From: a bacterium
GTDB lineage: Bacteria; UBA4055
Assembly (NCBI GenBank): GCA_029559475.1
Contig: JAKQBN010000030.1
Coordinates: forward strand, 10,756 to 74,755
Direction: 5' to 3'
Length of the DNA: 64,000 bases
Shown here: one piece after another, positions 10,796 to 48,423 of the stretch
How the letters are laid out: each line of letters begins with the position of its first letter
Position numbering within the stretch: position 1 is the first letter of the stretch
Notes under the pieces: model-generated
Databases searched by the model: none
Seen by the model: the letters and a program-made list of their open reading frames with translations, nothing else
What the model was told of the DNA's origin: nothing
Position numbers and translations under genes: made by a program

Positions 10796-10912
10796 AAATA
10801 TTTACAGAATATTGAATATATGATTTAAGATTAATAAAATCAAGCGTCTGTTGTTAATCTTTATTAATTATCGGTTTGCCGTTGGACTGCATTTGATTTA
10901 TATTTCCGGTCT

Positions 10913-33402: not shown

Positions 33403-33485
33403 TCAGCCTTCAGTTAAATTAGAAGTTAAATATAAACGTTTAAATTACTTTTTTAAAGAAAATAAAATTCCAACTTGAAGTTGTA

Positions 33486-34838
33486 TCATACATTTATTTT
33501 GGAATGATCCCTTTTATACTTCAGCATTTTTGCAATTAAGATCATTCCTATTATGCCTGCTGAAATATCCGTTATGAGCCTTGCTGAAAAGATTCCCCTT
33601 ATGCCGAACAAACTGCTTCCGAGTATCGAAAGAGGTATCAGTAAAACAAGGATCCTTACAATATTGAGCACTGTGGCAAGGACCGGCTTGTGGATTCCGG
33701 TCAGGAAAAATCCGCTGTAGCGGTGGATCTCCATCATTCCATAGCCGAACGATATTGTACGGACATACAGAACGAATATTTCTATGACTTTAGGATCATT
33801 TGTAAATATCTGCGCTAAGTAAGGCGCGCTTGTATAAAATACGGCGGCTATGAAGAATCCGTAATAGAATGCGAACTTTATTGAATATATTTTAGCCTGA
33901 TGTATCCTGTCGAACCTGCCGGCGCCGTAATTCTGGCTGACGAACGGCACTAATGACATTCCGAGAGCCATCGGGATCACGAAAGCGAACATCTCCATCC
34001 TTCCGGCCGCGCTTGCGGCGGCTACGGCTTCAATACCGTGTCTGCTTATAAGCGCAGTAACGACCGCAGCGGATAACGGCATCAGCATCATGCTTATGCT
34101 GCCAGGAATGGCAAATCCCATTATCTTTTTGCATGACCTGAAAAAATGACCCGTTTCAGGCTCTTTAAGTTTAAGCAGTTTGTGCTTTTTAAAAAGAAGG
34201 TAGAACAGCCAAACAGAAGTTACTGCCTGTCCGATCACGGTTGCGAGCGCAGCTCCTAAAATGCCCATCGCCGGAAGTCCGAACCATCCGAATATGAACA
34301 TCGGATCGAGTACGCAGTTTAGAAGCGCTCCGGTAGCCATAAAAGCGCTCGCCTGCTTTGATTCTCCCAACGATATCATGATCCCGTTGCCCATCATCGG
34401 AAAAGCCATGAACACGGCTCCGAAATACCAGGTGTTCATATAACTTTTTATTAACGGCATCGTAGTCTCGTCTGCTCCAAGCTTCGAGAAAATGTAATCT
34501 ACAGAAAAATAACCCGCCGCGGCCAGCAGTACCGAAAGGATCACGACAAGAATAACTCCGTGAGTAACGAGCCTGGATGCTGAAGCGTGATCTTTGCGCC
34601 CGAGAGCGTGGGATGTCAGAGTTGTTACTCCGGTACCTATTCCGCCGGCTATAAAAGTCAGCATCATAACGACAGGCATAGTAAATCCCATCGCGGCCAA
34701 CGGAACAGTGCCCAGCCTAGACACGAAATAAGTGTCGGCGAGGTTATATGTATTCATCGCGAAGGTTCCCACAAGCATCGGGAAAGCCATCTTGAAAAGT
34801 GTTCGTTTTACTGATAATTTTGCGACTAATTCAGACAT
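33486..34838 (-). CDS. MATE family efflux transporter
   Basis: The 450-aa product has 12 predicted transmembrane helices and the typical MATE N-terminal start (LFKMAFPMLVGTFAMNTYNLADTYFV). Confidence 0.85.
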   Translation of the reverse strand: MSELVAKLSVKRTLFKMAFPMLVGTFAMNTYNLADTYFVSRLGTVPLAAMGFTMPVVMMLTFIAGGIGTGVTTLTSHALGRKDHASASRLVTHGVILVVILSVLLAAAGYFSVDYIFSKLGADETTMPLIKSYMNTWYFGAVFMAFPMMGNGIMISLGESKQASAFMATGALLNCVLDPMFIFGWFGLPAMGILGAALATVIGQAVTSVWLFYLLFKKHKLLKLKEPETGHFFRSCKKIMGFAIPGSISMMLMPLSAAVVTALISRHGIEAVAAASAAGRMEMFAFVIPMALGMSLVPFVSQNYGAGRFDRIHQAKIYSIKFAFYYGFFIAAVFYTSAPYLAQIFTNDPKVIEIFVLYVRTISFGYGMMEIHRYSGFFLTGIHKPVLATVLNIVRILVLLIPLSILGSSLFGIRGIFSARLITDISAGIIGMILIAKMLKYKRDHSKINV

Positions 34839-34851
34839 TATTTAGTTCCTT

Positions 34852-35373
34852 TTACAATAACAAATAGAATTCCAGGTTTATACCCGGAAAAAAGTTAATG
34901 TCTAGATCATCAAGAAAGGGTTCTTCCGCATCTTTCTTTTCATCTACTTTGTCAAAAACAAGATAATTAATCCCGGCATCCAGCCTGATACCCGTTCTTT
35001 CTGAGATTCTGAAACTTTTTCCCGCCTGTAAATTAAACCATCCGTTTGTGCTTTTTTCATCATCAGATTCCGAGAAATTAAGTGTAACACCGGGTTTTAT
35101 ATATAAAGACTTGTATTTGGAATGATAAAAGTAAACGTCAAAAGAAAGAGCCTGAGTATTTTCAAGCATTTCATCAGGCACAGAACCGGCTCTTAATCCG
35201 AACCATATACCTTCAGCGGCATTTATCCTTAATCCTCCATAAAACAGCTCAAGATATCCTGCTCCGGCTGATACTTCATAACTCGGGTAATGAGCAATAT
35301 TTTCATCTGCCGAAAGCTGCCCGAAGGATGCAATTGTAAATACGAACATTAATGACATAATCCAATTTCTCAT
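34852..35373 (-). CDS. hypothetical small outer-membrane beta-barrel/lipoprotein
   Basis: A signal peptide is followed by a short amphipathic beta-strand pattern, ending in an aromatic/Leu residue. Confidence 0.35.
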   Translation of the reverse strand: MRNWIMSLMFVFTIASFGQLSADENIAHYPSYEVSAGAGYLELFYGGLRINAAEGIWFGLRAGSVPDEMLENTQALSFDVYFYHSKYKSLYIKPGVTLNFSESDDEKSTNGWFNLQAGKSFRISERTGIRLDAGINYLVFDKVDEKKDAEEPFLDDLDINFFPGINLEFYLLL

Positions 35374-35391
35374 AACATGACCCCTAATTTA

Positions 35392-35676
35392 TTACTTTTT
35401 CTTCTTCACGATCTTACCTTCAATAAAATTCTCATCATACTCGATCTTATCACTCCTGTCCCATCTGACCCACGAACCGTGCTTTAAATTATTCATAAAA
35501 TGCCCGATTTCCCACAACTGCCCGGTTTCGCGATAAAATTTCCATTCGCCTTCAAATAGCTCATTAATGTACGGACCCTCAGCTTTAAGCTTGCCGCTTT
35601 TATAGTAATAAGTCAGCTTTTTACCCGAAAGAACATATATCTTCTGACCGTTCGCGTATGTGTCTTTTCCAAGCAT
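35392..35676 (-). CDS. MORN-repeat protein (YwqK-like putative antitoxin family)
   Basis: The 94-aa product has repeated G-x-W/Y motifs (YYKSGKLKAEGPY, EGEWKFYRETGQLWEIGHF, HGSWVRW) resembling YwqK/MORN repeats. No adjacent toxin is seen. Confidence 0.5.
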   Translation of the reverse strand: MLGKDTYANGQKIYVLSGKKLTYYYKSGKLKAEGPYINELFEGEWKFYRETGQLWEIGHFMNNLKHGSWVRWDRSDKIEYDENFIEGKIVKKKK

Positions 35677-35702
35677 ACTAACCTCCCTAATATAAATAAT
35701 AT

Positions 35703-36254
35703 CTATACTAGTTTTTTCCCTGCTTCCTTAGCCTGCGCCATCATTTCAGCGGGAATTTCCTGTCCGTAATTCATCTGTCCGCCGCAGCTTATCTTGCCTG
35801 CGATCTCCATTTTAAAAAATCCCGATAAAGTTCCGCAGACGCTTTCCGTAACGGCCTTGTAATTATCGGCCGGAGCTCCGCTGGTAATTATAACAACGGC
35901 TTTCTTTCCCGGTGTTCTGTTAACGGTAAAATCAGGTTCGACGAATATACAGAACCTGTCGAGAAATGTCTTGGATGTTCCGCATATATAATCCATATAG
36001 ATCGGAGCCGCCCATACTAAAGCGTCAGCTTCAACCAGTTTTTTCATTACCGGAACAAGGTCGTCTTTCTTTGTACAGAAACCCGGATCAGAATCTGACA
36101 TCTGGCAGTTTCCGCATGATTTGAAATCCAAATCATAAAGATATACATATTCAACCTCAGAACCATTCCTGACCGCCTCATCGCAAACCGCTTTAGCAAT
36201 TTTCGCGCCTGTTCCTTCTTTCCTCGCACTGCTAATGACCGCTAATATCTTCAT
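35703..36254 (-). CDS. flavodoxin-like NAD(P)H-dependent FMN reductase / iron-sulfur flavoprotein
   Basis: A flavodoxin-like N-terminus (MKILAVISSARKEGTGAKIA) is followed by a Cys cluster (CGNCQMSD...C). The product is 183 aa. Confidence 0.55.
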   Translation of the reverse strand: MKILAVISSARKEGTGAKIAKAVCDEAVRNGSEVEYVYLYDLDFKSCGNCQMSDSDPGFCTKKDDLVPVMKKLVEADALVWAAPIYMDYICGTSKTFLDRFCIFVEPDFTVNRTPGKKAVVIITSGAPADNYKAVTESVCGTLSGFFKMEIAGKISCGGQMNYGQEIPAEMMAQAKEAGKKLV

Positions 36255-36284
36255 TCCAGACTCCTTTCCGTTATTTTAATTATT

Positions 36285-36836
36285 TCATTCACACTTTTTT
36301 AGCCTCTTTGCCATAATAATATCCGGTTTACCGAAGCCGTTCGCATCAGGAATTAATCCGACGACAGTATAGCCGAGTTTCTTATAGAAATCCACAGGAT
36401 GATCCGAAGTGCTTTTAATATTCTTCATTTGATCATAAATATCGGGATAAACATCGATCCCGCCGACATTCGTCCTGCAATGCTCATCATCCGATCCTAA
36501 ATATATTGTGAACGCGCCTTTCTCAAGAACCTTATCTTCAAGATCAAGAACAAGCATCCGCCCGATACCTTTTTTCCGCATATCCGCCTTCACTGCGAGA
36601 GGATGAAGTTCCCAAGCATGGCCGTCATATTGCTCGATACCTCCGATCCAGCCTGCAACATCGCCGTTCTCATCCACTGCGATCCTGCTGATCCTGTCAT
36701 CAGAGACCGATTCCAGCACTTCTTCAACAGCGCTCTTCATATCCGGCCAAGCCCCTTCAAAACAGGTCACAAGCAGCTCTGCAGCCTGACTGACATGCTT
36801 CTCATTTTTAATATCCATGTCAATTATTCTTATCAT
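36285..36836 (-). CDS. GNAT family N-acetyltransferase
   Basis: The acetyl-CoA binding motif (MRKKGIGRMLV) is present within a GNAT fold-length protein of 183 aa. Confidence 0.7.
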   Translation of the reverse strand: MIRIIDMDIKNEKHVSQAAELLVTCFEGAWPDMKSAVEEVLESVSDDRISRIAVDENGDVAGWIGGIEQYDGHAWELHPLAVKADMRKKGIGRMLVLDLEDKVLEKGAFTIYLGSDDEHCRTNVGGIDVYPDIYDQMKNIKSTSDHPVDFYKKLGYTVVGLIPDANGFGKPDIIMAKRLKKCE

Positions 36837-36967
36837 GATTTAGAGATATCTCCGTTTACTGATCAGTTTCGTTGAGTACACTAACATACATGAAAGAATT
36901 TAACCTATTTAAAAATTCTATGCAACAAAAAAGGTGGTCACAGTTTATGACCACCTCACTCAACATT

Positions 36968-38209
36968 CTAATCTTCAAATATGATCTGCGGTTTACCTTT
37001 ATTCTGTTCGACCCTGATAATTTCAAGAATTTTATCATACGAGTACGATCCTTTCAGCTTCGGATTGAACCTGCATCGTACCGAAACTTCATTTTTCTCA
37101 ACTTCCTTATCGCCGACGACAAGTATCAGAGGAATTTTCCGCAATTCCGCATTCCTGATCCGGCTGCTCAGAGAATCATTATTGTCTGAAAGTTCTACAC
37201 GCATATCTTCCTCTTTCAGCTTGCGCACCAGTTTTTTGCAGTGATCCGAACGGTTACTGTTTATATCGATAACCATTACCTGCATCGGAGACAGCCAGAA
37301 CGGCAGACTGCCCGAATAGAATTCCAGCAGTACGGCTATGAACCTTTCAATACTTCCGAACAAAGCACGGTGCACAAGATACGGAACATGGAATTTTCCG
37401 TCAGAACCGCGGTATTCCATCTTGAATTTACCGGGCAGGTTGAAATCGAACTGAACAGTGCTGCACTGCCATTCATTTCCCGCGAAATCGATTATCTTGA
37501 TATCTATTTTAGGCCCGTAAAAAGCACCGCCGCCTTCATCGATCTCATATTCCAGTCCGACTTCATTTACAGCTTTTTTCAAATGTTCAACCGCCATTTC
37601 CCAGTCTGAATCACTGCCTATAGCTTTCTCGGCCGGTTTAGTAGCTATATAAGCCTTGAACTTATTCAGCCCGAAAGCCCTGAGAACATAAAGGCTGAAC
37701 TTGAGAGCACGGAGTATCTCGCCGTAGATCTGATCCTTACTGCAGATAATATGCGCGTCATCCTGAACAAAACCTCTCACCCTTTTCAGCCCGTGCAGAG
37801 CACCGGAGAACTCATACCGGTAAACAGTGCCGAATTCCGCATACCTGACCGGCAGTTCCTGATATGACCTCTGCCTGTTCTTAAAGATCATCAGATGAAA
37901 AGGACAATTCATCGGCTTAAGATAATATTCTTCCTCATCTATCTTTATCGGAGCATACATATTTTCCTTAAAGAAATCCAGATGCCCTGAAGTTTTCCAC
38001 AAACCTGCCTTACCGATATGAGGAGAATAAACCCATTCATAGCCGTTTTGCAAATGAGCCTTCTGACTGAACCTTTCAAGCTCGTACCTTATGACACTTC
38101 CGTTCGGGTGAAAAGACACAAGACCCGCTCCGACTTCCTCTGAAAAACTATACAGATCAAGCTCTTTTCCAAGTTTGCGATGATCCCTGTTTTCGATAAT
38201 ATTCTTCAT
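36968..38209 (-). CDS. thrS: threonine--tRNA ligase paralog lacking N-terminal TGS/editing domains (catalytic class II core + anticodon-binding domain only)
   Basis: The product begins RDHRKLGKELDLY, which corresponds to about residue 240 of canonical ThrRS. Class II motifs and a C-terminal anticodon-binding domain are present. Upstream stop codons occur in all frames, so the 413-aa length is genuine. Confidence 0.75.
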   Translation of the reverse strand: MKNIIENRDHRKLGKELDLYSFSEEVGAGLVSFHPNGSVIRYELERFSQKAHLQNGYEWVYSPHIGKAGLWKTSGHLDFFKENMYAPIKIDEEEYYLKPMNCPFHLMIFKNRQRSYQELPVRYAEFGTVYRYEFSGALHGLKRVRGFVQDDAHIICSKDQIYGEILRALKFSLYVLRAFGLNKFKAYIATKPAEKAIGSDSDWEMAVEHLKKAVNEVGLEYEIDEGGGAFYGPKIDIKIIDFAGNEWQCSTVQFDFNLPGKFKMEYRGSDGKFHVPYLVHRALFGSIERFIAVLLEFYSGSLPFWLSPMQVMVIDINSNRSDHCKKLVRKLKEEDMRVELSDNNDSLSSRIRNAELRKIPLILVVGDKEVEKNEVSVRCRFNPKLKGSYSYDKILEIIRVEQNKGKPQIIFED

Positions 38210-38240
38210 TTTTTATTCCTTTAATTTAATTTTTTACAAT

Positions 38241-38273
38241 AAAAAAAGCCGCTGAACCCGAGGGTCCGGCGGC
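38241..38273 (-). terminator. strong rho-independent terminator located 32 nt upstream of the thrS-like start codon (candidate attenuator/T-box terminator)
   Basis: On the minus strand the sequence is GCCGCCGGACCCTCGGGTTCAGCGGC followed by TTTTTTTATT. A GC-rich 26-nt hairpin like this is unusual in this AT-rich DNA. Confidence 0.55.
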
Positions 38274-38415
38274 TTATTAACAAACCGTTTTTAGATTATG
38301 TTAAATTATACCAACCCCCTCCGGGTTCGAAACTCGTAGGTGGTCGTGGTCAGTGCGATTCCTATATGTCGTAAATTAATTTTCATTTTCTTACTTTTTT
38401 TTTAATTCCGACCGC

Positions 38416-38444
38416 AAATTACTACAATTATTTTTTATTGTCAA
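38416..38444 (-). promoter_or_regulatory. candidate sigma70 promoter for the thrS-like leader
   Basis: On the minus strand, TTGACA is followed by a 17-nt spacer and TAATTT. This would give a leader of about 190 nt that contains an ACG-ACC-ACC run. Confidence 0.3.
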
Positions 38445-38461
38445 GCGATAAAACGATCCGT

Positions 38462-39397
38462 TTATTTATACTCATTTAGCTTGCTTAATAATTCAACAGC
38501 CTCGATCCCGAACTTAGAAAATCCGAACCATTTCTTTCCAAGATCTTTTAATGATGCACCGAAATGATACACATCCGAGTCGTCAATAATTATAAATCTG
38601 TCGTGCGATTTTTTGAATATTCTTATTTCAATCGGAAAATACTGCTCGCTGAATTTTTCTATGTCAAGTTTTAGCTGTGGTGAAACCGATTGAGTCAGGA
38701 TCGTTACTTTTACATTCTTGTTTACTTTTACGAGAAGAACCAGAACAGTATCGTCAATATAATTGTCTATGATCAACACCGATTTCTCAGCTCTTCGAAA
38801 CAAATCAGACACAAACTTGTATGCATCGAATATCTGACCGTCAAAGAATATCCCTTGCTTTGGCTGTAATTCCTTACTTTCAAGCGCATTGAATAGTTTA
38901 TCTAATTTAATATCATTTTCAATCAATTTTACTTCAACTCGATCCAATCTCTGAAATACTTGAGCATTTGACTGTATGAATTTACGCATCTCGACAAATG
39001 CTTTCATAATTTTCACACTGATTATTATTGCCGTTTCGCTCCTTAATACAGCTGATAACATTGCAACACCCTGTTCTGTGTAAACGAATGGCAAATATTT
39101 TGTGTGCCTACCTTTTGCATCCTCTATGATCACAATTTGTGATCTTAAAGAGTTCTTGTGCCTATTTTCGCTCTTTATACAAGATTTTATATTTTCATAT
39201 TCTGATTCATCAAGTTGGAAACAAAAATCATCAGGAAACCTTTCCTTGTTCCTTTTAACAGCCTGATTAAGAATCCTTGTCTCCACTCCGTAAAGTTCAG
39301 CCAAATCTCTATCCAGCATCACCTGATATCCCCTAATAGAATAAATCCTGTCTCGGATTACCCCCTCATCAAATTTTTCCAATTCATTACCTGTCAT
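38462..39397 (-). CDS. ORF6N (KilA-N-like) domain-containing protein
   Basis: The N-terminal ORF6N signature is IRDRIYSIRGYQVMLDRDLAELYGVETRILNQAVKRNKERFPDDFCFQL. The internal ATG at 39397 is preferred because GGGAG lies upstream. Confidence 0.7.
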   Translation of the reverse strand: MTGNELEKFDEGVIRDRIYSIRGYQVMLDRDLAELYGVETRILNQAVKRNKERFPDDFCFQLDESEYENIKSCIKSENRHKNSLRSQIVIIEDAKGRHTKYLPFVYTEQGVAMLSAVLRSETAIIISVKIMKAFVEMRKFIQSNAQVFQRLDRVEVKLIENDIKLDKLFNALESKELQPKQGIFFDGQIFDAYKFVSDLFRRAEKSVLIIDNYIDDTVLVLLVKVNKNVKVTILTQSVSPQLKLDIEKFSEQYFPIEIRIFKKSHDRFIIIDDSDVYHFGASLKDLGKKWFGFSKFGIEAVELLSKLNEYK

Positions 39398-39436
39398 AAA
39401 TAATTCTCCCGATAACATTTTAGGCAATATAACACG

Positions 39437-39465
39437 AGAAGAGTGCCATCTAATGGCACTCTTCT
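39437..39465. terminator. perfect 13-bp inverted repeat hairpin (terminator or protein-binding palindrome) between the GNAT and ORF6N genes
   Basis: The arms are agaagagtgccat and atggcactcttct with a cta loop. No clean T-run follows on either strand. Confidence 0.4.
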
Positions 39466-39488
39466 ATAAAATATGAATTATTTTTTTA

Positions 39489-40109
39489 TTATTTTACGAG
39501 AGGTATCTCATCTCCGAAAACATCGAAAATTTTTATATCATTGTCTTCAAATCCGTGATACTCGCTTCTGAACAGAACCCAGACCATAAAATCCCTGAAC
39601 TCTCCTTCAAAAGCCGTATTGACCCTCTTCCTAATACATTCCAGATTAAAACCGAGCTTTTTTGGGACATTCTGACTTTTCTGATTTTCGGGAACACATT
39701 TGATCTCGAACCTGTCTATTTCTTCATTCATGAAACCGACTTTGATCAGCGCTTTTGAAATTTCCGTGACTATACCCTTTCCGCATTCTTCCTTATCGAT
39801 CCAGTATCCGATCTCGTAGGCATACTTACCGTTGTGAGTATGAAGTCCCGTACCGCCTATCACTTTAGATTCGTCCCTGTTAAAGATACCATACACAAAA
39901 TCCTTTGAAGCATCGAAATTCGACCTGAACCTGCGCAATATCTCAATCCTGTCCTCAACAGTAAGAGGCTCTTTATGTACGAAGGGCATAAATTCTTTAA
40001 GATGATCCACATTCTTCGTGATCGAAGCGTGAAGCAGCTTCGCGTCAGCCGGATTCCAGCATCTTAGAACGCATCGCTTTGTTTCAATTCTATAAGATGG
40101 ATATTTCAT
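39489..40109 (-). CDS. GNAT family N-acetyltransferase (RimJ/RimL-like)
   Basis: The RimL-like start (MKYPSYRIETKRCVLR) and GNAT motif A (ECGKGIVTE) are present. The ATG at 40109 is preferred because an AGAGGT Shine-Dalgarno lies upstream. Confidence 0.7.
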   Translation of the reverse strand: MKYPSYRIETKRCVLRCWNPADAKLLHASITKNVDHLKEFMPFVHKEPLTVEDRIEILRRFRSNFDASKDFVYGIFNRDESKVIGGTGLHTHNGKYAYEIGYWIDKEECGKGIVTEISKALIKVGFMNEEIDRFEIKCVPENQKSQNVPKKLGFNLECIRKRVNTAFEGEFRDFMVWVLFRSEYHGFEDNDIKIFDVFGDEIPLVK

Positions 40110-40187
40110 TTTTACCTCTTTGCGCCATTTTTTAACATGACTAGTCAACAGATTTCTTGTATATATAGACTGGTGTGATACACAATT

Positions 40188-40590
40188 TTATTTGTGATTG
40201 AACTTAGTAAAATATTCGTCAATTTCTGGCCTTAATTCAATTCCTACTCGCTCAAAGATGTCCAACAAATCATTATAAGTACCTTCGCCACCTAAAAAAT
40301 CCCAGAATTCATGAGCTACTTTTAATTCATTCTCAAGATCAAGCATACCAGCCATAGTCCATCTGGTATACGGTTTCGGCTCATAAGGATTATATGGAAT
40401 TGCAATTAAAGTATTTACATTGGCTTGAGGATTATCAGCAAGTACGCAAGCAGTCCATTGAAGTAATGTTCTTTTAAATTCAATAAATCCGCCTTTATTA
40501 GGCTTTGCAGTTTTTATATCGAATAAAAATAATTCTCCTGAAATAGTGACATTTGTCCCTTCGCGAAGTGTTATATTACAAATATAAGGC
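40188..40590 (-). pseudogene. start-less ORF remnant (about 133 codons, no ATG/GTG/TTG), possible fragment of a PD-(D/E)XK-like nuclease
   Basis: I translated this by hand: ...TLREGTNVTISGELFLFDIKTAKPNKGGFIEFKRTLLQW...EFWDFLGGEGTYNDLLDIFERVGIELRPEIDEYFTKFNHK*. Stops occur in all frames upstream, and it abuts the divergent start of the HTH-repeat gene. Confidence 0.35.
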
Positions 40591-40606
40591 TAAACTGGAG
40601 GGGAAA

Positions 40607-41452
40607 ATGACAAAAAAGGAAACAGAGCTTCAAAGATACATAGATAAGACAAGCGAGGGAGAGTTTCTGTACGAGTTGGCAAATTCGTATGAGCTCTCCC
40701 CGATTTTAAGTAAAAACATCCTTCAAACAGCCAAAACCTGCCTTCTCCAAAGCAAAGTACTTCAAGCCGGACAGATAGAATATCACTGCGTAAGTATCGA
40801 TGAAAAAAGCGGGAAGCAGATGCTTGATATGAGCAAGATAAAAGTTATTCTGACTCTAAAGGACGAAATCGAAGATATAACTACTTTAAGCGTGGAAGGC
40901 AGAAGCGTATATCGTCAGAATAAAATTCAAAGGATGACTGATGAGGCTATAGCGCAAAACGGCATATTAAGTCAGGAAGATCTTAGTATGCTGCTGAATG
41001 TAAGCGTGAGAACGATCAAGCGTGATATTCGTAGAATAAAGATCAGGAATATTGAAGTGATCACCCGCGGGACCTATCACAATATAGGAAGGGGACAAAC
41101 GCACAAGACACGAATAATCAGCCTATTTCTTGAAGGATGCACATATACTGACATCAAGTGGAAAACGCATCACAGCACAGGATCAATCAAGAGGTATCTT
41201 GATAGCTTCGGAAAAGTTCTGATGTGTGTGGAGTATGGTATTAAGGACAAGTCAGAGATACGATCTGTAACAAATCTGTCTGAATATCTGATATGCCAGT
41301 ACCTGGATATACTCAAATCTGCAGAAAAAAGTAAAGTGAAATCAGAAAACTTGGATATGCTTAAACAGCAACTGTCATATAGATATGGTTCAAAAAAAAC
41401 GATCGTTTACGATGGTCTGAGAGCGGAAGCTACGACAGGAGGCTGGAAATGA
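40607..41452 (+). CDS. hypothetical protein with three tandem helix-turn-helix-like modules (paralog 1)
   Basis: The ATG at 40607 is preferred because GGAGGGGAAA lies upstream. Repeated modules include LSQEDLSMLLNVSVRTIKRDI, YTDIKWKTHHSTGSIKRYL and SEIRSVTNLSEYLICQYL. Confidence 0.5.
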   Translation: MTKKETELQRYIDKTSEGEFLYELANSYELSPILSKNILQTAKTCLLQSKVLQAGQIEYHCVSIDEKSGKQMLDMSKIKVILTLKDEIEDITTLSVEGRSVYRQNKIQRMTDEAIAQNGILSQEDLSMLLNVSVRTIKRDIRRIKIRNIEVITRGTYHNIGRGQTHKTRIISLFLEGCTYTDIKWKTHHSTGSIKRYLDSFGKVLMCVEYGIKDKSEIRSVTNLSEYLICQYLDILKSAEKSKVKSENLDMLKQQLSYRYGSKKTIVYDGLRAEATTGGWK

Positions 41453-42246
41453 ATCTGAACAATATACGGGACAGATATGAAAGCATAAACAAACGGAACT
41501 TCAGATCAGCTTTGATAAGCCTTTTAGAAAACGATTATAAAATTTTAGGATCAAGAAAAATCTTATCCATGCTTGCAGAGGACATTGAACAGCTTTATAA
41601 CGAATTTAATCCTAAAATATCTGAAGTCGGCTTTGGTGAGATCGTATTCAGGACAACAAAAGATGATGGTCAAAGACAAAGTTACGGTAAGAAGACAGAA
41701 GATTATGCGTCAACGACAGTGATACTGCCATTGATAACAAAAGATGATGTTGAGCGCAGAATTTATTTCCGCAAAGGCGACAGAAACAGTAATTACGAGC
41801 ACAGAGAGTCAAGGGACATAGAAACTATGGTAAGGCTAATCAAAAGCGCAAAGGAGCAAGGCGGATTACTCACCGGAGCGGAAGTAAGTGTTCTGATGAA
41901 CAGAAGCCTCAGTACCATCAGAAAATATCTTGATGCTTACAGGAATAAAACAGGTGAAATACTTCCGCTGAAAGGATATGTGCTTGATCAAGGCAGCCTG
42001 CCTACTCATAAAGGCATAATCGTATCGCTTTATGAGCAGGGAATATCTCCGTCCGATATTGTTTTAAAAACTTCACACAGCCAAAGCGCGGTTGATCGCT
42101 ACATCGGGCAATACGATCAGATTAAGAAGCTCATTAAAAAAGGTTTAAATGAGCGTGAAATTAAAGATATTACGAGAAGGTCATTGAAAATCATCAGAGA
42201 ATATGTTAAATTGTATAAACAATTAAATCCGGAAGTGAAAAAATGA
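41449..42246 (+). CDS. hypothetical protein with three tandem helix-turn-helix-like modules (paralog 2)
   Basis: It aligns by eye with paralog 1 over about 130 residues (GxLxxxExSxLxNxSxxTIxxxL...THKxxIxSL...DIxxKTxHSxxxxxRYx). It is coupled to paralog 1 by an ATGA overlap. Confidence 0.5.
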   Translation: MNLNNIRDRYESINKRNFRSALISLLENDYKILGSRKILSMLAEDIEQLYNEFNPKISEVGFGEIVFRTTKDDGQRQSYGKKTEDYASTTVILPLITKDDVERRIYFRKGDRNSNYEHRESRDIETMVRLIKSAKEQGGLLTGAEVSVLMNRSLSTIRKYLDAYRNKTGEILPLKGYVLDQGSLPTHKGIIVSLYEQGISPSDIVLKTSHSQSAVDRYIGQYDQIKKLIKKGLNEREIKDITRRSLKIIREYVKLYKQLNPEVKK

Positions 42247-42249
42247 AGA

Positions 42250-42729
42250 TTATTTACTACCGCGCTTCGCTTGCTTACTTCTCAGGGGACAAATGTCACT
42301 AATGTAAAAAGATTCAAGCATGACATCTACTTTTGTAGCCTTAACAACTTTCATCTTACCTTTCTGGCAAACTTTTCTTATCGCATTGATTTCTTCGGGT
42401 TTACAAGGTTTTACATTTGCTGCGGTTAAATCATCCATAATATCTTGAATTACTCTTTGAGCATCTTCACTGATATTAACACCAGCTTTAGCTTGTGCCG
42501 TTGCGTTTTTGAAATTTTTACTGGCTAATGCGAGTGCGACAGGTTCAAATATGCTGGTACCAAAATTTGTATTCAATGATTGAATAAAAGAGAACAATGC
42601 GATCCTGTCACTGCCTAGTAGTCTTGTATGGAACGGCATTGAAGCTGGTTCTGGATTATAATTTTTGAATTTATGCCTCAAGCTATTTCTTAAGACATCT
42701 TCTATTTGTTTTATTTGATTACTATCCAT
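42250..42729 (-). CDS. hypothetical 159-aa protein co-transcribed downstream of the DNA methyltransferase (candidate restriction/specificity partner)
   Basis: It starts 33 nt after the MTase stop on the same strand. I did not recognise any motif family. Confidence 0.35.
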   Translation of the reverse strand: MDSNQIKQIEDVLRNSLRHKFKNYNPEPASMPFHTRLLGSDRIALFSFIQSLNTNFGTSIFEPVALALASKNFKNATAQAKAGVNISEDAQRVIQDIMDDLTAANVKPCKPEEINAIRKVCQKGKMKVVKATKVDVMLESFYISDICPLRSKQAKRGSK

Positions 42730-42762
42730 TTCAAGTTATCTCAAGTAAGTTAGGGTTTAGAA

Positions 42763-44388
42763 TTACTTCCTCTTCAAGTGAAATATTATTTCCGAGTAGG
42801 CACTTTTATCTCTTTCGGTACGGTTGAGCACTGGTCTTTTGAACTGATTTACAATTTTCATATCTGCATTATCTGCGATAGTTGGATATAAATTATATTT
42901 ATCGTTTGCTACGAGAAACACATCATAATCCTTTACAAAGTACTTTTTTACATTGTTCAAAACATCGCTTATGCCTTTAACATAGCTATCTTTAGCTTCT
43001 CGGCCTTGACCTTTGAAAAGAGGTCCGATTTCAAGCTCGTCATTCCTGTCGAATCCGAAAAGATCATAAGCGTAGGCATGCTGTTCATGATAATCAATTA
43101 AACCTACATAAGGAGGTGATGAAAATATCCCGTTTATTTTCTTTTTTGAAACAAGTTTTGAAAATTCAGGATCCAATTTTTTTAAACCGTTGACTATATC
43201 AATCGTTCTGCTGTCACCGGTCAGGCAAGTATGAAATGTTTCTTTTTTTAGCTTTGAGTAATCTTCTAAGCGCTTTACAGTGTCTTTAGCGTATCTTTCC
43301 CACCAGCTCAAAATTGAAAATAAAGGTTTGCATATTTTACCGTGTTTTGAACAGTAATATGTCGTCGTTACAGGCTCGAAAAGAGTTGCAAGATCTGCAT
43401 GAGTAGTTGCTCTGCAACTTCTGATAGTCCTGCTTAATATTACGCTTACAATTTCTTTCGTATCCGAATTAGCTATTTTCTTTATCTCATTGTGCACTAT
43501 TTCAATTTCTTCTCTGATGTGCTCAGAATACCATTTGTCGAGAAATGAGCCTTCTTTGCTTTGTCGCTGCTTGATTTTATACTCAGCTACTAATTTTTTG
43601 AAGATCGGTAAGAACTCTTTTTCTTTTTCAGCTCCATAAGTATCTTCATCTACCATTTTACGCTTAATATTGTAACGGTATTCTGGAGACGGAAAATGTT
43701 TTAGATTAAAATCATATAGCTCGTGTAATAATTTTTCTTCAAATTCTACAGTATGATTATCTTTCAAGAATAATTTTAGTTTTTTAGAAATTTCGCTTAT
43801 AACTTTTAGCACTTCATCATAGTTATAGTCTTTAACTTTACATTTAGCTATCATAGAATTGAATGCTGAAACATCAATCCCTATTGAATGGATTCCAAGT
43901 TCGCAAGCTTGTACCATTGTAGTGCCGCTGCCTGAAAAAGGATCGAGTACTATATCACCTTGTTTGAAGTAAATCTCTTTTTTGAAATCATCAACATGCG
44001 CGTCTAAAAAATACTCAACCAGTTGAGGTATAAATTTTCCTTTGTAGGGATGTAATCTGTGAACATGTTTTGTTGTGTCTGATTCTTTATACTGATCAAA
44101 TGACAATGCCCAATTAAGATCATTTCCAAGTTCTTTTTTCCATGTATCTACTCTGGATTCCTTAAAACCCGCATAATATTCGGCAAGCTCTTCTTTAACA
44201 ACCATAGTCGATCCATTTTCGCCAATTTTTTTTATTCTACCGTACTGGACTAAATAAGATATATTTGAAGGTGTTACATTTTTCCCTAGTAAATCTGAAG
44301 CCCAATCGCTTGCTTCCTTTATTGACAATAATTCTGACATTTTCTTTACCTGCTTCATGTGCAATTTATCTGTCTTTTCAATCTTCAT
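42763..44388 (-). CDS. DNA methyltransferase (N6-adenine or N4-cytosine type; FxGSGTT motif I and SPPY motif IV) with N-terminal HTH-like segment
   Basis: The HPYKGKFxPQLVEYFL...GDIVLDPFSGSGTTMVQACELG motif lies at about aa 120-165, and IFSSPPYVGLIDY at about aa 420. The N-terminal 70 aa are HTH-like. Confidence 0.8.
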   Translation of the reverse strand: MKIEKTDKLHMKQVKKMSELLSIKEASDWASDLLGKNVTPSNISYLVQYGRIKKIGENGSTMVVKEELAEYYAGFKESRVDTWKKELGNDLNWALSFDQYKESDTTKHVHRLHPYKGKFIPQLVEYFLDAHVDDFKKEIYFKQGDIVLDPFSGSGTTMVQACELGIHSIGIDVSAFNSMIAKCKVKDYNYDEVLKVISEISKKLKLFLKDNHTVEFEEKLLHELYDFNLKHFPSPEYRYNIKRKMVDEDTYGAEKEKEFLPIFKKLVAEYKIKQRQSKEGSFLDKWYSEHIREEIEIVHNEIKKIANSDTKEIVSVILSRTIRSCRATTHADLATLFEPVTTTYYCSKHGKICKPLFSILSWWERYAKDTVKRLEDYSKLKKETFHTCLTGDSRTIDIVNGLKKLDPEFSKLVSKKKINGIFSSPPYVGLIDYHEQHAYAYDLFGFDRNDELEIGPLFKGQGREAKDSYVKGISDVLNNVKKYFVKDYDVFLVANDKYNLYPTIADNADMKIVNQFKRPVLNRTERDKSAYSEIIFHLKRK

Positions 44389-44437
44389 AAACGTTTCTAA
44401 TTTACTCTAAACAAGTTGTTTTTACAAACAAAATTCC

Positions 44438-44620
44438 TTATTTATTTTCAAGTATTGTTTCATTTATAGAAGATTCTATAGCATCAAACCAATCTATTTT
44501 TTCTGCAATCACATCTTTTATCTTTAAAATTTCAGACGAATTTAATTTTCTTCCCAATACTTCTTCAGATACATTCTGAACATCTTCATCTGTTAATTCA
44601 TAAACAACATTCTTTCTCAT
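44438..44620 (-). CDS. hypothetical small acidic protein (60 aa)
   Basis: The ORF lies between ispF and the MTase gene on the same strand. No motif was recognised. Confidence 0.25.
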   Translation of the reverse strand: MRKNVVYELTDEDVQNVSEEVLGRKLNSSEILKIKDVIAEKIDWFDAIESSINETILENK

Positions 44621-44650
44621 ATAGATATTAACTCCTCATTTTTTTTCAAT

Positions 44651-45139
44651 TTATTTCTTCCTTACCCCTTTCTCCAACATGACCACAGCCTGAGCGGCGA
44701 TTCCTTCGCCTCTGCCTTCGAAGCCGAGTTTTTCGGTGGTGGTGGCTTTGACCGATATGTTTTTGATTTCAGTTTGGAGTAATTTGGCTATGACCGAGCG
44801 CATTTGGTCAATGTGGTCTTTGAGCTTTGGTTGTTCGCAGATGACTACCGCGTCGATGTTGTTTATTATATAACCTTCAGCTTTGATGAGCGCGTAAACC
44901 TTTTCTAAGAGTATTCTGCTGTCTATGTTCTTGTATGAGCTGTCGTTGTCGGGGAAATGTTTTCCGATGTCGCTCAAGGCTAAGGCTCCGAGCATGGCGT
45001 CCATTATTGCGTGGAGAAGCACATCCGCGTCCGAGTGGCCGAGCAGTCCTTTTTCATAAGGAATTTCGATCCCGCCGATAATGCATTTTCTGCCTTCGAC
45101 CAGCTTGTGAACATCGTATCCTATACCTATTCTGTACAT
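44651..45139 (-). CDS. ispF: 2-C-methyl-D-erythritol 2,4-cyclodiphosphate synthase
   Basis: The motifs [10 protein letters not shown] and [12 protein letters not shown] are present. The product is 162 aa. Confidence 0.9.
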
Positions 45140-45159: not shown

Positions 45160-48100
45160 TTACAGATCTTCCTTTACATACTTATCAAGATAAAACTTGA
45201 GCGACTGTTTTGACAGCGATATCTGTTCCGGTAGCGGGAAATAGACGAGATACCACGGTTTTTTCAGCTTTATCAGAGTATATATGAAATTATTTTTTAT
45301 CGTGAATGAGAACAGATCGACCTTTATGCCCGGGAATGCGTTGAGGGTATTTTTTATCATCCCCGCAGTTTGATCGCCGGAGTTCTTATTGAGGAATTCA
45401 AGCAGATATTTTGCATCATCGCCCGAAAGCTTGGAGAGATTTATTTCACCGTTCAAATCAGGTTCATTTATGAAGTCGAGTCCTTTTGAATTCAGCTTCA
45501 CTATAACATTGAGCTCTGTAGAAGGGCTGTGCTTTGTCTTTTTCCTGTTGAGATAGTAAGTGTTAAGACCGGTCATGGTCAGTCCCAGGTCGAGGTTCGC
45601 TCTTGTGATTATATCGTCAAATCCGCCTTCCCCGAGATCGAGCCTGATAAATCCGTCCGTGTTCCCGTCGAATATCTCATAATAGAATCTGTTCAGGCAG
45701 AATTTGTTGTTGTCGAAAAATACGTCGAGATCGATATTTCTTATAGTGTTCCTGAATAATTTATGATCGACAGCCACTGTATCGATTTTGAGGTTTGAAA
45801 CAGGCACACCGTTCTTCCTGTAGTGTTCCCTCATATCCTTATATTCTATAAAATCGAATTCGTCAGGTATATCGTACTTTTTATAGCCGTTGAGCTTCAT
45901 TTCCTTCAGATCAAGTTTCGCATTTAGCGGAATATCGGCGTTCAGATTTACTATCCTGACCTCATTGCCCAAAGAATCCAGCTCTATGACCATGCTGATG
46001 TTTTGAATAGTTTCTGTATGTTCGAAAGAAGCTGTTTTCATATTGCCTTTCAGCTTTGTAGCGCCGGAAATATTACCTTTGAGATCATAAATTCCCTTCA
46101 GGAACGGATACTTCTTCTGCAGTCCGAGCTTATGCGTGATCTCAAGATCGTACATGTTCACACTGTCCTTCAAATTCGCCGTACCTTTGACGTTAAGATC
46201 GGTTTCGAGCGCGGGCACAGACAGGCTGAGTTTGTTTATCCTGACTTCACCCGTTTCTGTATATCTGATGTTATTCTCAAGCTTTGCATTCCCGGTTATC
46301 CCCATTTCTTTCAGGATGCCGGCATAATCTCCGCCGCTGACATTTATGTCGCCGATCAGAGAAATATCCTTCGTTATCAAATTGACTTTCTGGCTGACGG
46401 TCAGACCGTTCTTTAAAGCTATATCATCGTGATATAAAGAATCAGCTTTTAGATCAAGCCTGAGTTCCGATGTTGATTCCTGCTTCGTAATATTCCCGCC
46501 GCCTTCCGCTGAAATATTCAGGCTTCCGTTGTACAGCCTTGTGTTCTGTATCTGAGGTATCCCGGTCGCTTTTCCCACCTTAAGCAGCTCGTCAAGATCC
46601 GCCGAAACGTCAAATTTCGCCATGCTGACATCGTTCGATCCGAGATCGGCGAAAAGGTCTTTTATATCCGCGGAGAACATATCGTTCAGCTTTGCTGTAA
46701 ATTCGTATATTTTATATTTTGAAGACGGATGTCCGCTGATATCTGCGTACAGGTAAGTTTCGAGACTGGCATCTTTCGCTGCAGAATACATTGAGGCGGT
46801 TTCATTATTGTATTCCGTTGTCACATTGAGAGTGTTCTTAAGTTCTCCGCGCGAATATTTCAGATCTTCATCAAGGGTAATATAAAGTCCTGCCGGGGCT
46901 GAATCGATAATAGTGTGCGGATGGATCCTGTCCGCTTTTATGATCAGATCGGCTTTTGTGCGTTTTATCAGCGCGGGAAGTGAAGTGTTCGTCAGATCAA
47001 ATGTAGCGTCGGCCTTAATATTTATATTTCCTTCAGCTACATCTTTGATGTCATATTCGAGTTTTGCGCTTTCAGGCAAAAAATCGCTTTTCAGCTTGGG
47101 CACAATTGAAAGCTTCTGCGCTCCGGTAGAATATTTTTTCCCGGAAATGACCGCGCTTATGCTTTCAAGCGCAAGATCCAGGTTTACTCCGCTGCTCAGA
47201 AGTTTATAATCCTTCATCTCTGCGGCGAATCCGCTTTTTATAGCCATCCCGTTGGCCAAAGCAGAAATATCTTTCTTTTTATAACTGACCGCACCGGCCG
47301 AAAGATCAAGATAGCCGACCGCTTTAATGATATTCTGCGCGGCATCGTAGTATAGCTCAAGATCGCTCAGGGTTAGTTCTGAACTCTTAAGACTTAGAAA
47401 ACTCAGATCAGCAAGCTTATCGGCTTTGACGAACGATACAAGTTTATCAAGATCGGCATAAATTTCAGGAATGCTTATTTTAGCTTTCTGCGACGAAGAA
47501 AGTCCGGCTATCGTTCCTGTGATCTCTGTTCTGAACATATCAGAAATGTTCAGCGATAATTTCTGAAGATCTAAGGAATCCATATTAAGATTATAATTTG
47601 CTTTTAAATTTATGTCAACAGCGCCTGTGTGTTCGATATTCATCGCGCCTGTACGCAGCCTAAGCTCTCTTATATTATGCGTAAGTTCAGCTTCAATTTT
47701 CTCATTTTTAGCGCTGATCTTCAGAACCATATCCTGAAAGAACCTGATATCGTTCGATTTATCTGTGAATATAAACCCGTTCCTGTCGCCTGTACTGAAT
47801 TCAACGTCAGCACTATAATTATCCATATCCTTAAAATTCACATCATTGAGTTTTAAAGTGTAAAGCGGCAGAACAGCTTTCATCGGATTTTCAGGCGATC
47901 TGTCTTCATAAATAGCTTCGAGATCGTTCAGTTCGAAATTTTTCAGATCTATTATGAATTTCGCACCTGAAGAAGGCTCTTCCGGCTTTTCCGGCGGAGG
48001 CGGCTCCTCTTTGCTTTTGAATTTCTCAATGATACCGTCGAAATTGAATCTGCCGTCCGCATCCCGCACAATATTTATTTTCGGGTGATCGATCTTTATG

Positions 48101-48423
48101 GTTTTAACTACAAGCTGCTTATCAAGAAGCGGCCACAGATCATACTTTAAAGTGAAAGATTCCATGCTGAAAAGCGAATCCGGAACGTCATTGTCCGTGA
48201 AGCTGAACTTGTCGATCTTTATCCCGCTGAAAAGGCTGAAATCAATGCTCTCGATCTCAACTCCGAGGTTATATTTCTCTTTCATATAGGATTCGATCTT
48301 TGAGATCAGGAAAGAAGATGGGAAAAAATACTGCAGCATTAAAATTATGCCTGCAATCAATAATACGATCCCGCCCGTTATGTATAACATCCATTTGAGT
48401 ATTTTTTTCGGCTTGAATTTCAT
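45160..48423 (-). CDS. AsmA/TamB-like large envelope protein (translocation and assembly module family)
   Basis: The 1087-aa product has a single N-terminal transmembrane anchor followed by a long beta-rich repetitive body typical of AsmA-like proteins. Confidence 0.65.
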   Translation of the reverse strand: MKFKPKKILKWMLYITGGIVLLIAGIILMLQYFFPSSFLISKIESYMKEKYNLGVEIESIDFSLFSGIKIDKFSFTDNDVPDSLFSMESFTLKYDLWPLLDKQLVVKTIKIDHPKINIVRDADGRFNFDGIIEKFKSKEEPPPPEKPEEPSSGAKFIIDLKNFELNDLEAIYEDRSPENPMKAVLPLYTLKLNDVNFKDMDNYSADVEFSTGDRNGFIFTDKSNDIRFFQDMVLKISAKNEKIEAELTHNIRELRLRTGAMNIEHTGAVDINLKANYNLNMDSLDLQKLSLNISDMFRTEITGTIAGLSSSQKAKISIPEIYADLDKLVSFVKADKLADLSFLSLKSSELTLSDLELYYDAAQNIIKAVGYLDLSAGAVSYKKKDISALANGMAIKSGFAAEMKDYKLLSSGVNLDLALESISAVISGKKYSTGAQKLSIVPKLKSDFLPESAKLEYDIKDVAEGNINIKADATFDLTNTSLPALIKRTKADLIIKADRIHPHTIIDSAPAGLYITLDEDLKYSRGELKNTLNVTTEYNNETASMYSAAKDASLETYLYADISGHPSSKYKIYEFTAKLNDMFSADIKDLFADLGSNDVSMAKFDVSADLDELLKVGKATGIPQIQNTRLYNGSLNISAEGGGNITKQESTSELRLDLKADSLYHDDIALKNGLTVSQKVNLITKDISLIGDINVSGGDYAGILKEMGITGNAKLENNIRYTETGEVRINKLSLSVPALETDLNVKGTANLKDSVNMYDLEITHKLGLQKKYPFLKGIYDLKGNISGATKLKGNMKTASFEHTETIQNISMVIELDSLGNEVRIVNLNADIPLNAKLDLKEMKLNGYKKYDIPDEFDFIEYKDMREHYRKNGVPVSNLKIDTVAVDHKLFRNTIRNIDLDVFFDNNKFCLNRFYYEIFDGNTDGFIRLDLGEGGFDDIITRANLDLGLTMTGLNTYYLNRKKTKHSPSTELNVIVKLNSKGLDFINEPDLNGEINLSKLSGDDAKYLLEFLNKNSGDQTAGMIKNTLNAFPGIKVDLFSFTIKNNFIYTLIKLKKPWYLVYFPLPEQISLSKQSLKFYLDKYVKEDL

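Follow-up and report, generated by a model that had tools for sequence, protein, structure and literature searches.

The thrS413 gene and its product

The stretch of DNA analysed here, called the window, has 64,000 nucleotides of contig JAKQBN010000030.1 and contains, on its reverse strand, a gene for a threonyl-tRNA synthetase (ThrRS) of 413 amino acid residues, which was named thrS413. The gene is preceded by a leader with a predicted transcription attenuator, and both are located in a variable island between rlmD and ispF. The gene and the elements adjacent to its ends are the following:

36968..38209, minus strand: thrS413, encoding a 413-residue ThrRS that consists only of the class II catalytic core and the anticodon-binding domain; four threonine (Thr) codons in total
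38216..38220, minus strand: ribosome-binding site AGGAA, 6 nt ahead of the thrS413 start codon, read from the sequence
36931..36957, minus strand: terminator-like hairpin directly 3' of the thrS413 stop codon, found by a consensus scan

An AGGA or AGGG core is found ahead of the start codon in every aligned locus. The encoded protein begins MKNIIENRDHRKLGKELDLY, with seven residues before its RDHRK, and according to Pfam it shows a tRNA-synt_2b domain (PF00587) between residues 91-297 (E-value 2.6e-41) and an HGTP_anticodon domain (PF03129) between residues 310-399 (E-value 2.5e-18), with no match to either TGS or tRNA_SAD. Its score on the NCBIfam model TIGR00418 (thrS) is 524 bits, above the cutoff of 383.65, and model positions 169-565 of 565 are covered. 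In relation to solved structures, it is the end-to-end counterpart of residues 241-631 of Escherichia coli ThrRS and 239-617 of Staphylococcus aureus ThrRS, and the crystallised constructs of the E. coli and Salmonella enzymes, whose first residue is 242 (PDB: 1EVK/1EVL and others), match it with an E-value of about 1e-101 and the same boundaries. The class II core includes motifs 2 and 3 and the three zinc ligands (Cys334, His385 and His511 in E. coli); the bacterial-type N-terminal TGS domain (N1) and the N2 editing domain, with its HxxxH and CxGPH motifs, are both missing.

This truncation is real and is not an annotation or frameshift artefact, because the boundaries agree with those of structures and model, an in-frame stop precedes the start and no N-terminal remnant is found in any frame. 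The open reading frame (ORF) opens at the first start codon past that in-frame stop. Furthermore, a hidden Markov model (HMM) of the TGS and N2 domains, built from 23 full-length ThrRS, found nothing in the six frames of the 64-kb window (best E-value 0.29), and the same model picks up the vestigial N2 of a 528-residue relative with an E-value of 3e-15. An earlier note on this DNA, made from the sequence alone, had described the protein as a ThrRS without TGS and editing domains, which starts at about residue 240 of bacterial ThrRS and has no missed N-terminus. The first point is borne out by Pfam, TIGR00418, the structure alignments and the TGS and N2 HMM, the second by alignments that begin at E. 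coli residue 241 and S. aureus residue 239, and the third by the upstream in-frame stop and the negative six-frame search.

In the alignments, the zinc ligands of thrS413 are located in PMNCPFH, QDDAHI and VHRA. Also retained are the Arg of motif 2 and the residues that correspond to Tyr462, Gly463, Thr482, Gln484 and Leu489 of the E. coli enzyme. Across 30 full-length ThrRS from many phyla, 129 alignment columns are near-invariant, and 112 of them are unchanged in all six 413-residue proteins. The ratio of non-synonymous to synonymous substitutions (dN/dS), calculated pairwise among seven thrS413 orthologs, ranges between 0.05 and 0.15, and the gene is under strong purifying selection. Because of these conserved positions and these ratios, thrS413 is predicted to encode an intact and enzymatically active synthetase which forms Thr-tRNAThr.

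The same domains and the same N-terminal boundary are found in an engineered E. coli ThrRS (residues 242-642; PDB: 1EVK/1EVL, 4HWO and 6L2P series), which shows full amino-acid activation, weaker tRNA charging and no post-transfer editing (PMC4267643, PMC4787780). That enzyme is a laboratory construct, whereas thrS413 occurs in nature, evolves under purifying selection, has a regulatory leader of its own and encodes a Thr-depleted product. Yeast mitochondrial MST1 (PDB: 3UGQ and others) is a precedent for the minimal architecture; it is prone to errors with Ser and depends on pre-transfer editing at its synthetic site (PMC4267643). However, MST1 is an organellar housekeeping enzyme without attenuator, and it is distant from thrS413 (E-value 1.6e-72, compared to 1e-101 for bacterial cores). 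The crenarchaeal ThrRS-cat (Aeropyrum pernix, PDB: 3A31/3A32) is, like thrS413, a catalytic ThrRS without an editing domain in cis, but it works with a dedicated trans-editing ThrRS-ed, whereas thrS413 is bacterial-type: it reaches 203 bits on the archaeal model NF003068, whose cutoff is 484, and an E-value of 1.4e-66 against 3A31. No free-standing editing-domain ORF was found in the window or in the related loci, and with a bacterial-type enzyme and no such gene nearby the analogy with the archaeal split enzyme drawn in the earlier note does not fit.

Leader region and threonine content

The spacer upstream of thrS413 has 250 nt and contains, in this order, a promoter-like site, a leader ORF, a small spacer hairpin, a terminator hairpin followed by U7, and the ribosome-binding site. 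Its elements are listed below; related loci are designated by L numbers.

38416..38444, minus strand: putative promoter, TTGACA - 17 nt - TAATTT, read from the sequence
38306..38386, minus strand: leader peptide ORF, 26 residues, MKINLRHIGIALTTTTYEFRTRRGLV followed by a stop; the same ORF is found in L085, L003, L089, L090, L091, L093 and L096
38339..38350, minus strand: region 1, four consecutive Thr codons (ACC ACG ACC ACC), proposed ribosome pause site; read from the sequence, pairs with region 2 in the consensus fold
38311..38322, minus strand: region 2, GGAGGGGGUUGG, G-rich; from folding, invariant in eight loci
38241..38275, minus strand: predicted attenuator terminator (regions 3 and 4), AAGCCGCCGGACCCUCGGGUUCAGCGGC followed by U7; -20.4 kcal/mol in RNAfold, with the stem invariant or its pairing kept in eight loci

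The TTGACA and TAATTT boxes (TATTTT in L090) are also present in the related loci examined. The Thr run of the leader peptide (TTTT; TTTA in L090) and the terminator are found with near-invariant sequence in eight loci, the window and seven others, and in all of them the terminator is a GC-rich hairpin followed by six or seven U, with energies of -16 to -25 kcal/mol. Region 2 has two possible partners, the C-rich Thr codons (1:2) or the 5' arm of the terminator (2:3, antiterminator). The consensus fold of the eight leaders pairs the Thr codons to region 2 and predicts the terminator; in folds with region 1 masked and before synthesis of the 3' arm, the partner of region 2 is the terminator 5' arm in every locus. 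The leader stop codon is located 3 nt downstream of region 2, and therefore a ribosome finishing the peptide would cover region 2. Sequence identity between the leaders of the window and L085 is 94-98%, with a gene dS >1.3 (synonymous sites saturated), and this conservation supports the prediction of a functional RNA.

A similar design is found in other loci. In L087, which contains the 528-residue relative, the leader has an unrelated sequence, MINIAQNINSNAAFCSTTTTLTAVKWEFVV followed by a stop, and shows the same three pairings. Leader ORFs with a Thr run and a terminator behind them precede five of the eight other editing-less short thrS genes, which come from metagenome-assembled genomes (MAGs) labelled Bacillota, compared to one of 62 editing-proficient thrS genes (Fisher p = 2.7e-5). 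A sixth Thr-run leader among these short genes, in L010 (MLIVVFKTTITG followed by a stop), was recognised on second look. As a separate observation, four loci labelled Bacillota (L007, L008, L011 and L013) show the motif GAAAGGGGGYGWUUGCYCYGA after the attenuator terminator, 150-250 nt upstream of the short thrS, which suggests a second element in those four leaders.

Attenuators of this type are known from amino-acid operons and from pheST, an aminoacyl-tRNA synthetase gene under leader-peptide attenuation; trpRS1 of Streptomyces coelicolor, an auxiliary indolmycin-resistant TrpRS, is reportedly also controlled by ribosome-mediated attenuation. All of these have a short ORF with a run of cognate codons and mutually exclusive antiterminator and terminator hairpins, as predicted upstream of thrS413, but the thrS413 leader is outside any Rfam family, the proteobacterial Thr leader included. 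The Rfam search gave no match at the gathering score in the window, and T-box and Thr_leader were absent at E-values up to 10 in positions 38150-38520; a T-box or another known RNA family upstream of thrS413 was ruled out by this search. The consensus scan for promoters and terminators found the terminator behind the gene and missed both the TAATTT -10 box and the attenuator terminator with its internal C.A mismatch. On the basis of its order, pairings and conservation, the element is most probably a classical ribosome-mediated attenuator, by which thrS413 would be regulated according to charged tRNAThr. A full-text search of a literature library found no report of a thrS gene under leader-peptide attenuation.

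The protein itself is depleted of Thr. The window protein has four Thr in 413 residues, the orthologs P0002, P0003 and P0004 have one each and P0005 has two; Thr content across the 413-residue clade is 0.25-1.2% (1-5 Thr codons in 413). In comparison, the cores of 30 full-length ThrRS show a mean of 3.5% (range 2.0-5.0%, about 14 Thr), and 22 other proteins of the window range between 4.3 and 7.7%. At the frequency of ThrRS cores, the probability of one Thr or fewer in 406 residues is about 1e-5. Six positions at which 73-100% of ordinary ThrRS have Thr show Ser, Lys/Val, Gln/Ser, Val, Ser/Gly and Ser in the clade, and of the 17 changes that are specific to the clade at sites invariant elsewhere, three replace Thr. 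The only Thr kept by every clade member is the equivalent of E. coli Thr482, a residue that never varies among the ThrRS examined.

Enzymes required when a cell starves for an amino acid have been described to contain little of it, the so-called cognate bias (PMC4209129). There it concerns biosynthetic pathways and is a modest statistical bias, whereas thrS413 encodes a tRNA synthetase, the bias is extreme and near-invariant Thr sites are replaced. The Thr depletion of thrS413 is an extreme form of cognate bias. With a Thr-codon sensor in its leader and a Thr-poor coding sequence, the gene would therefore be switched on when Thr codons are unreadable and would itself be nearly independent of them. 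Both the attenuator and the Thr depletion, which were absent from the earlier note, are the features most informative on the role of the gene.

Variable island and distribution among strains

Comparison with related loci delimits the island in which thrS413 is found:

33467..44660, no strand: variable island between rlmD and ispF, from blastn of the window against L097, L093, L091, L094 and L003, and from Pfam

The backbone gene rlmD ends at 33402, with homology up to 33466, and ispF starts at 44651, with homology again from 44661, which leaves an island of 11.2 kb. In window order, its cargo consists of MatE, a hypothetical gene, MORN, an FMN reductase, a GNAT, thrS413 with its leader, ORF6N, a second GNAT (GNAT-A), a HinfI-type restriction-modification (R-M) system and two DUF1670 genes. 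The accessory-looking stretch that the earlier note had seen around the gene corresponds to this island, and the Pfam matches agree with the GNAT, flavodoxin-like (FMN reductase) and ORF6N neighbours it had named.

The ispF-rlmD interval also contains thrS413 in L085/L086, L002/L003, L091/L092, L093 and, in part, L096. The island cargo differs in each thrS413-bearing relative and includes AccI/Eco57I-type, HaeII-type and other R-M genes, GmrSD, HEPN, MarR and others. In L089, MvaI/BcnI-type restriction genes adjoin thrS413, on a short contig that reaches neither ispF nor rlmD.

Other loci do not show the gene. In L094, the slot between GNAT-A and a nitroreductase gene is occupied by a gene encoding a 213-residue membrane protein. 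Between L093 and L097, identity is 99.5% along the 10,086 bp up to ispF and 99.3% along the 402 bp after thrS413; at that site, L093 has a 9.1-kb island including leader and thrS413, and L097 has 1.1 kb with an unrelated ORF of 261 residues. This empty haplotype was found in three samples (L097, L098 and L099) with 99.9-100% identity, and because two samples besides the first show it, an accident of assembly is excluded. No thrS413 remnant was found by tblastn in L094 and L097. The thrS413 copy is dispensable and variably present, and the possibility that the truncated gene is the sole thrS and universal in its lineage, by which the earlier note would have regarded it as housekeeping, is contradicted by the loci that lack it: L094, at the syntenic site, and L097/L098/L099, with flanks 99.3-99.5% identical to those of the thrS413-bearing L093.

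ThrRS activity is essential, and Thr-tRNAThr is not known to be formed by any indirect route. Strains without thrS413 must therefore have another ThrRS, and the simplest expectation is that thrS413-bearing strains also carry a second, housekeeping ThrRS. The term paralog, used for thrS413 in the earlier note, thus stands in so far as the copy is truncated, accessory and dispensable, and the housekeeping thrS that it implies is deduced from this dispensability.

The gene upstream of thrS413 varies by strain and is GNAT-A, GNAT-B or APH-like. A fixed partnership with an upstream GNAT, such as an acetyltransferase detoxifying aminoacyl-nucleotides, was considered and rejected, as the neighbour can be GNAT-A, an unrelated GNAT (35% identity) or an APH-like gene; in addition, GNAT-A persists where thrS413 is absent.

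Several observations concern the island itself. The DNA of GNAT-A is 87-92% identical across lineages whose backbone genes are about 70% identical (window 39489..40148; L094 12676..13290; L097 10477..10606; L091 13985..14288), and other island variants, that of the empty-site strain among them, are bordered by remnants of its ends; GNAT-A may mark a recombination joint of the island. The HinfI-family restriction gene looks split (window 40188..42729), with an N-terminal ORF at 42250..42729 (minus strand) and C-terminal homology at 40209..40583 (minus strand). Two DUF1670 genes of opposite orientation (40553..41452 and 41449..42246) lie between both parts, which gives the impression that a cassette of two genes was inserted into the restriction gene. 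The ispF-rlmD interval is a hotspot (L093 10481..19617; L091 10645..14300; L096 6777..15200; L094 9867..14053), and its R-M and defence sets differ in each genome sampled: HaeII, GmrSD and HEPN; AccI/Eco57I; a KAP NTPase and a SEC-C motif protein; or MvaI/BcnI.

Proposed role, rival explanations and relatives

We propose that thrS413 is an accessory, strain-variable and editing-less emergency ThrRS of a Delongbacteria-like bacterium, for use when charged tRNAThr is short, and we give this reading a probability of roughly 0.62. Transcription would start at the TTGACA-17-TAATTT promoter, and the 26-residue leader with its four Thr codons would be translated. When Thr-tRNAThr is plentiful, the ribosome would reach the leader stop and cover region 2, the terminator with U7 would form and transcription would end before thrS413. 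When Thr-tRNAThr is scarce, the ribosome would pause on the Thr codons, region 2 would pair with the terminator 5' arm and the polymerase would read into thrS413. With only 1-5 Thr in 413 codons, the gene would still be translatable during the shortage, and its product would charge tRNAThr by means of the zinc-dependent class II active site and the anticodon-binding domain, without post-transfer editing of Ser-tRNAThr. Routine charging would be carried out by a different ThrRS, as yet unseen. The physiological trigger that we infer for this switch could be starvation, failure of the main enzyme or its inhibition. Three features converge on this role: the Thr codons of the leader would sense the shortage, the Thr-poor gene would be translatable at that moment, and strain-variable carriage marks the gene as optional.

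Several points weigh against it. A second thrS of the same organism was not seen among the matches listed in scans of species genomes and of metagenomes. In the species-genome scan, the matches listed were only relatives of 52-60% identity from other phyla, which is uninformative on this lineage; the query of the metagenome scan was the N-terminal 200 residues of the 528-residue relative (vestigial N2 and core start), and the source contigs were not among the matches listed. Strains with an empty site could carry thrS413 elsewhere, yet nine of nine occurrences with context are in this island. The eight closely related leaders show zero compensatory double changes in any base pair, because the leader is near-invariant; structural support therefore rests on conservation, the independent design in L087 and the folding energies. 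Because the antiterminator is thermodynamically the less stable of the two hairpins, the switch has to be kinetic, like that of classical attenuators. The engineered E. coli ThrRS without N-terminal domains charges tRNA less efficiently (PMC4267643). Finally, more ThrRS creates no threonine, and a benefit under true starvation is assumed.

The closest precedents are Anabaena T2, Bacillus subtilis ThrZ, yeast MST1, and pheST or Streptomyces trpRS1. ThrZ is a backup ThrRS under T-box control. T2 is an auxiliary ThrRS induced by zinc starvation under Zur control, whose editing is degenerating and is corrected in trans by the other ThrRS (PMC4787780). Both are similar to thrS413, as read here, in being a second ThrRS reserved for stress and induced by a shortage signal. 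However, both keep the N-terminal domains, whereas thrS413 lacks the N-terminal half, appears to be under leader-peptide control, is nearly Thr-free and is strain-variable.

An inducible target-replacement resistance, in which a natural inhibitor blocks the housekeeping ThrRS, Thr-tRNAThr falls, the attenuator opens and an inhibitor-insensitive thrS413 takes over, is unlikely but has several points in its favour. An attenuator of this design would answer any drop of Thr-tRNAThr, drug inhibition included, and the same logic has reportedly been described for the auxiliary indolmycin-resistant TrpRS of Streptomyces. Across strains, the island cargo includes GNATs, an APH-like kinase motif protein, MarR, MatE, a nitroreductase and the FMN reductase, and plasmids of other bacteria carry extra thrS copies, although no plasmid-borne relative of thrS413 above 51% identity was found. 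On the other hand, the change of Gly463 to Ser, the shown cause of obafluorin and borrelidin resistance in ObaO, and that of Leu489 to Met, which also distinguishes ObaO (PMC11252418), are both absent: the window protein shows AFYGPK and FNLPG. With the equivalents of Gly463 and Leu489 in wild-type form, the suggestion of the earlier note that this might be a resistance or immunity paralog gains no support from known determinants. Furthermore, biosynthetic genes are missing from the island, and none is found for 10 kb in both directions in the window or in related loci, and the variable upstream neighbour (GNAT-A, GNAT-B or APH-like by strain) is no fixed resistance partner. Drug resistance would leave the extreme removal of Thr unexplained, though without conflict with it.

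Somewhat more doubtful is the idea of a regulated mistranslation device, which would be turned on when Thr-tRNAThr is near exhaustion and serine is in large excess over threonine, and would load serine on tRNAThr, so that stalled ribosomes finish with Ser in the place of Thr. If this was true, the Thr-poor enzyme would be made first and be unaffected by the substitutions it causes, and the repeated independent loss of the editing domain would be adaptive rather than decay.

It is improbable that thrS413 is the sole housekeeping ThrRS of a lineage without editing, in which thrS413 or its 528-residue cousin would be autoregulated by the attenuator, as pheST is in E. coli. Its constant chromosomal site across lineages with IspF 74-99% identical and the strong purifying selection fit a housekeeping gene, no other thrS was seen among the matches listed, and the Firmicutes next-best matches of UvrA and IspF (see below) indicate that a Clostridia-like ThrRS affinity need not mean horizontal acquisition. 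Against this stand the presence or absence of the gene between 99.5% identical flanks, with the empty haplotype in three samples, the different gene that a second species holds in the thrS413 slot, and the location of thrS413 within an island of R-M and defence genes. A non-translational use of Thr- or Ser-tRNAThr, or of Thr-AMP, in another pathway such as tRNA-dependent modification of cell wall or peptides is very improbable: aminoacyl-tRNA synthetase paralogs with such roles are known in general (PMC9437257) and a FemAB-family gene is found in the conserved backbone near the island in L094, but the anticodon-binding domain and catalytic residues are kept as in canonical ThrRS, the Thr codons of a translated leader would tie expression to the ribosomal demand for Thr-tRNAThr, and no conserved partner gene adjoins thrS413.

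Bacterial ThrRS have been described as carrying the N2 editing domain (PMC4267643, PMC4787780), and thrS413 is a natural bacterial counter-example, within a whole subfamily that lost the domain. As an emergency ThrRS, it could be a model for how tRNA charging restarts after the collapse of the cognate aminoacyl-tRNA, and for whether the loss of proofreading is tolerated, compensated in trans or exploited. The sparing of the cognate amino acid, described for biosynthetic enzymes, would also be extended to a synthetase, where it is extreme. In annotations, such genes are plainly named "threonine--tRNA ligase" and are liable to pass for the housekeeping enzyme. We found no description of this combination of features, above all of the near-total removal of Thr, in the literature that was searched.

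In a neighbor-joining tree of the core regions, the 413-residue clade, the 528-residue form and a 411-residue protein belong to a distinct superclade, which also includes two further groups. The first of these contains ThrRS of about 587 residues without TGS but with the N2 motifs HxxxH and CxGPH, and the second contains ThrRS of 510-533 residues with a vestigial N2 in which both motifs are lost. Proteins of 408-433 residues nest at several places in the tree, and thus the N-terminal module was lost more than once; the subfamily shed its editing domain stepwise, from about 587 to about 515 and about 410 residues. Its members also show FSQxAH in the place of FWKxxH and a C-terminal GxPxxI tail. 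No infC-like neighbour, a mark of housekeeping thrS genes, was recognised next to the short thrS genes when neighbouring ORFs were inspected by eye. The 587-residue editing-proficient relatives are preceded by T-box leaders (L005 9042..9271; L006 118..339), and in L005 a ZMP/ZTP riboswitch follows the thrS gene (11361..11443).

With respect to the host, the window is contained in JGI contig Ga0116236_10000082 (141.8 kb), and proteins identical to those of the window are deposited in GenBank as "MAG TPA: Clostridiales bacterium" (HQO08515.1, HQP68851.1), a doubtful label. The closest named relatives of UvrA and IspF of the window belong to "Candidatus Delongbacteria bacterium" (69-86% identity), and Firmicutes are next-best, with 50-52% for UvrA and about 72% for IspF. 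Among the products of the host genome and its relatives are LolCE, AsmA/TamB-like and Wza-like proteins, as well as some that bear type IX secretion tails. The outer-membrane genes in the window are:

16965..18188: LolCE-like
45160..48423: AsmA/TamB-like
13404..15980: Wza-like

The "Clostridiales" label (HQO08489-HQO08536) clashes with these genes and with the Delongbacteria-labelled relatives of UvrA and IspF. A recent horizontal transfer of thrS413 from Clostridia was considered and is unsupported: because the housekeeping genes of the host, UvrA and IspF, also have Firmicutes as next-best, the Clostridia-like affinity of the ThrRS is by itself no evidence of transfer. Between the window and L085 (36968..38386 and 9826..11242, respectively), the leaders are 94-98% and the IspF proteins 95% identical, and the ThrRS proteins only 77%; the L085 ThrRS shows higher identity (84-86%) to the ThrRS of genomes that are more distant. 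This suggests an allele replacement or a faster evolution of the window thrS413 copy.

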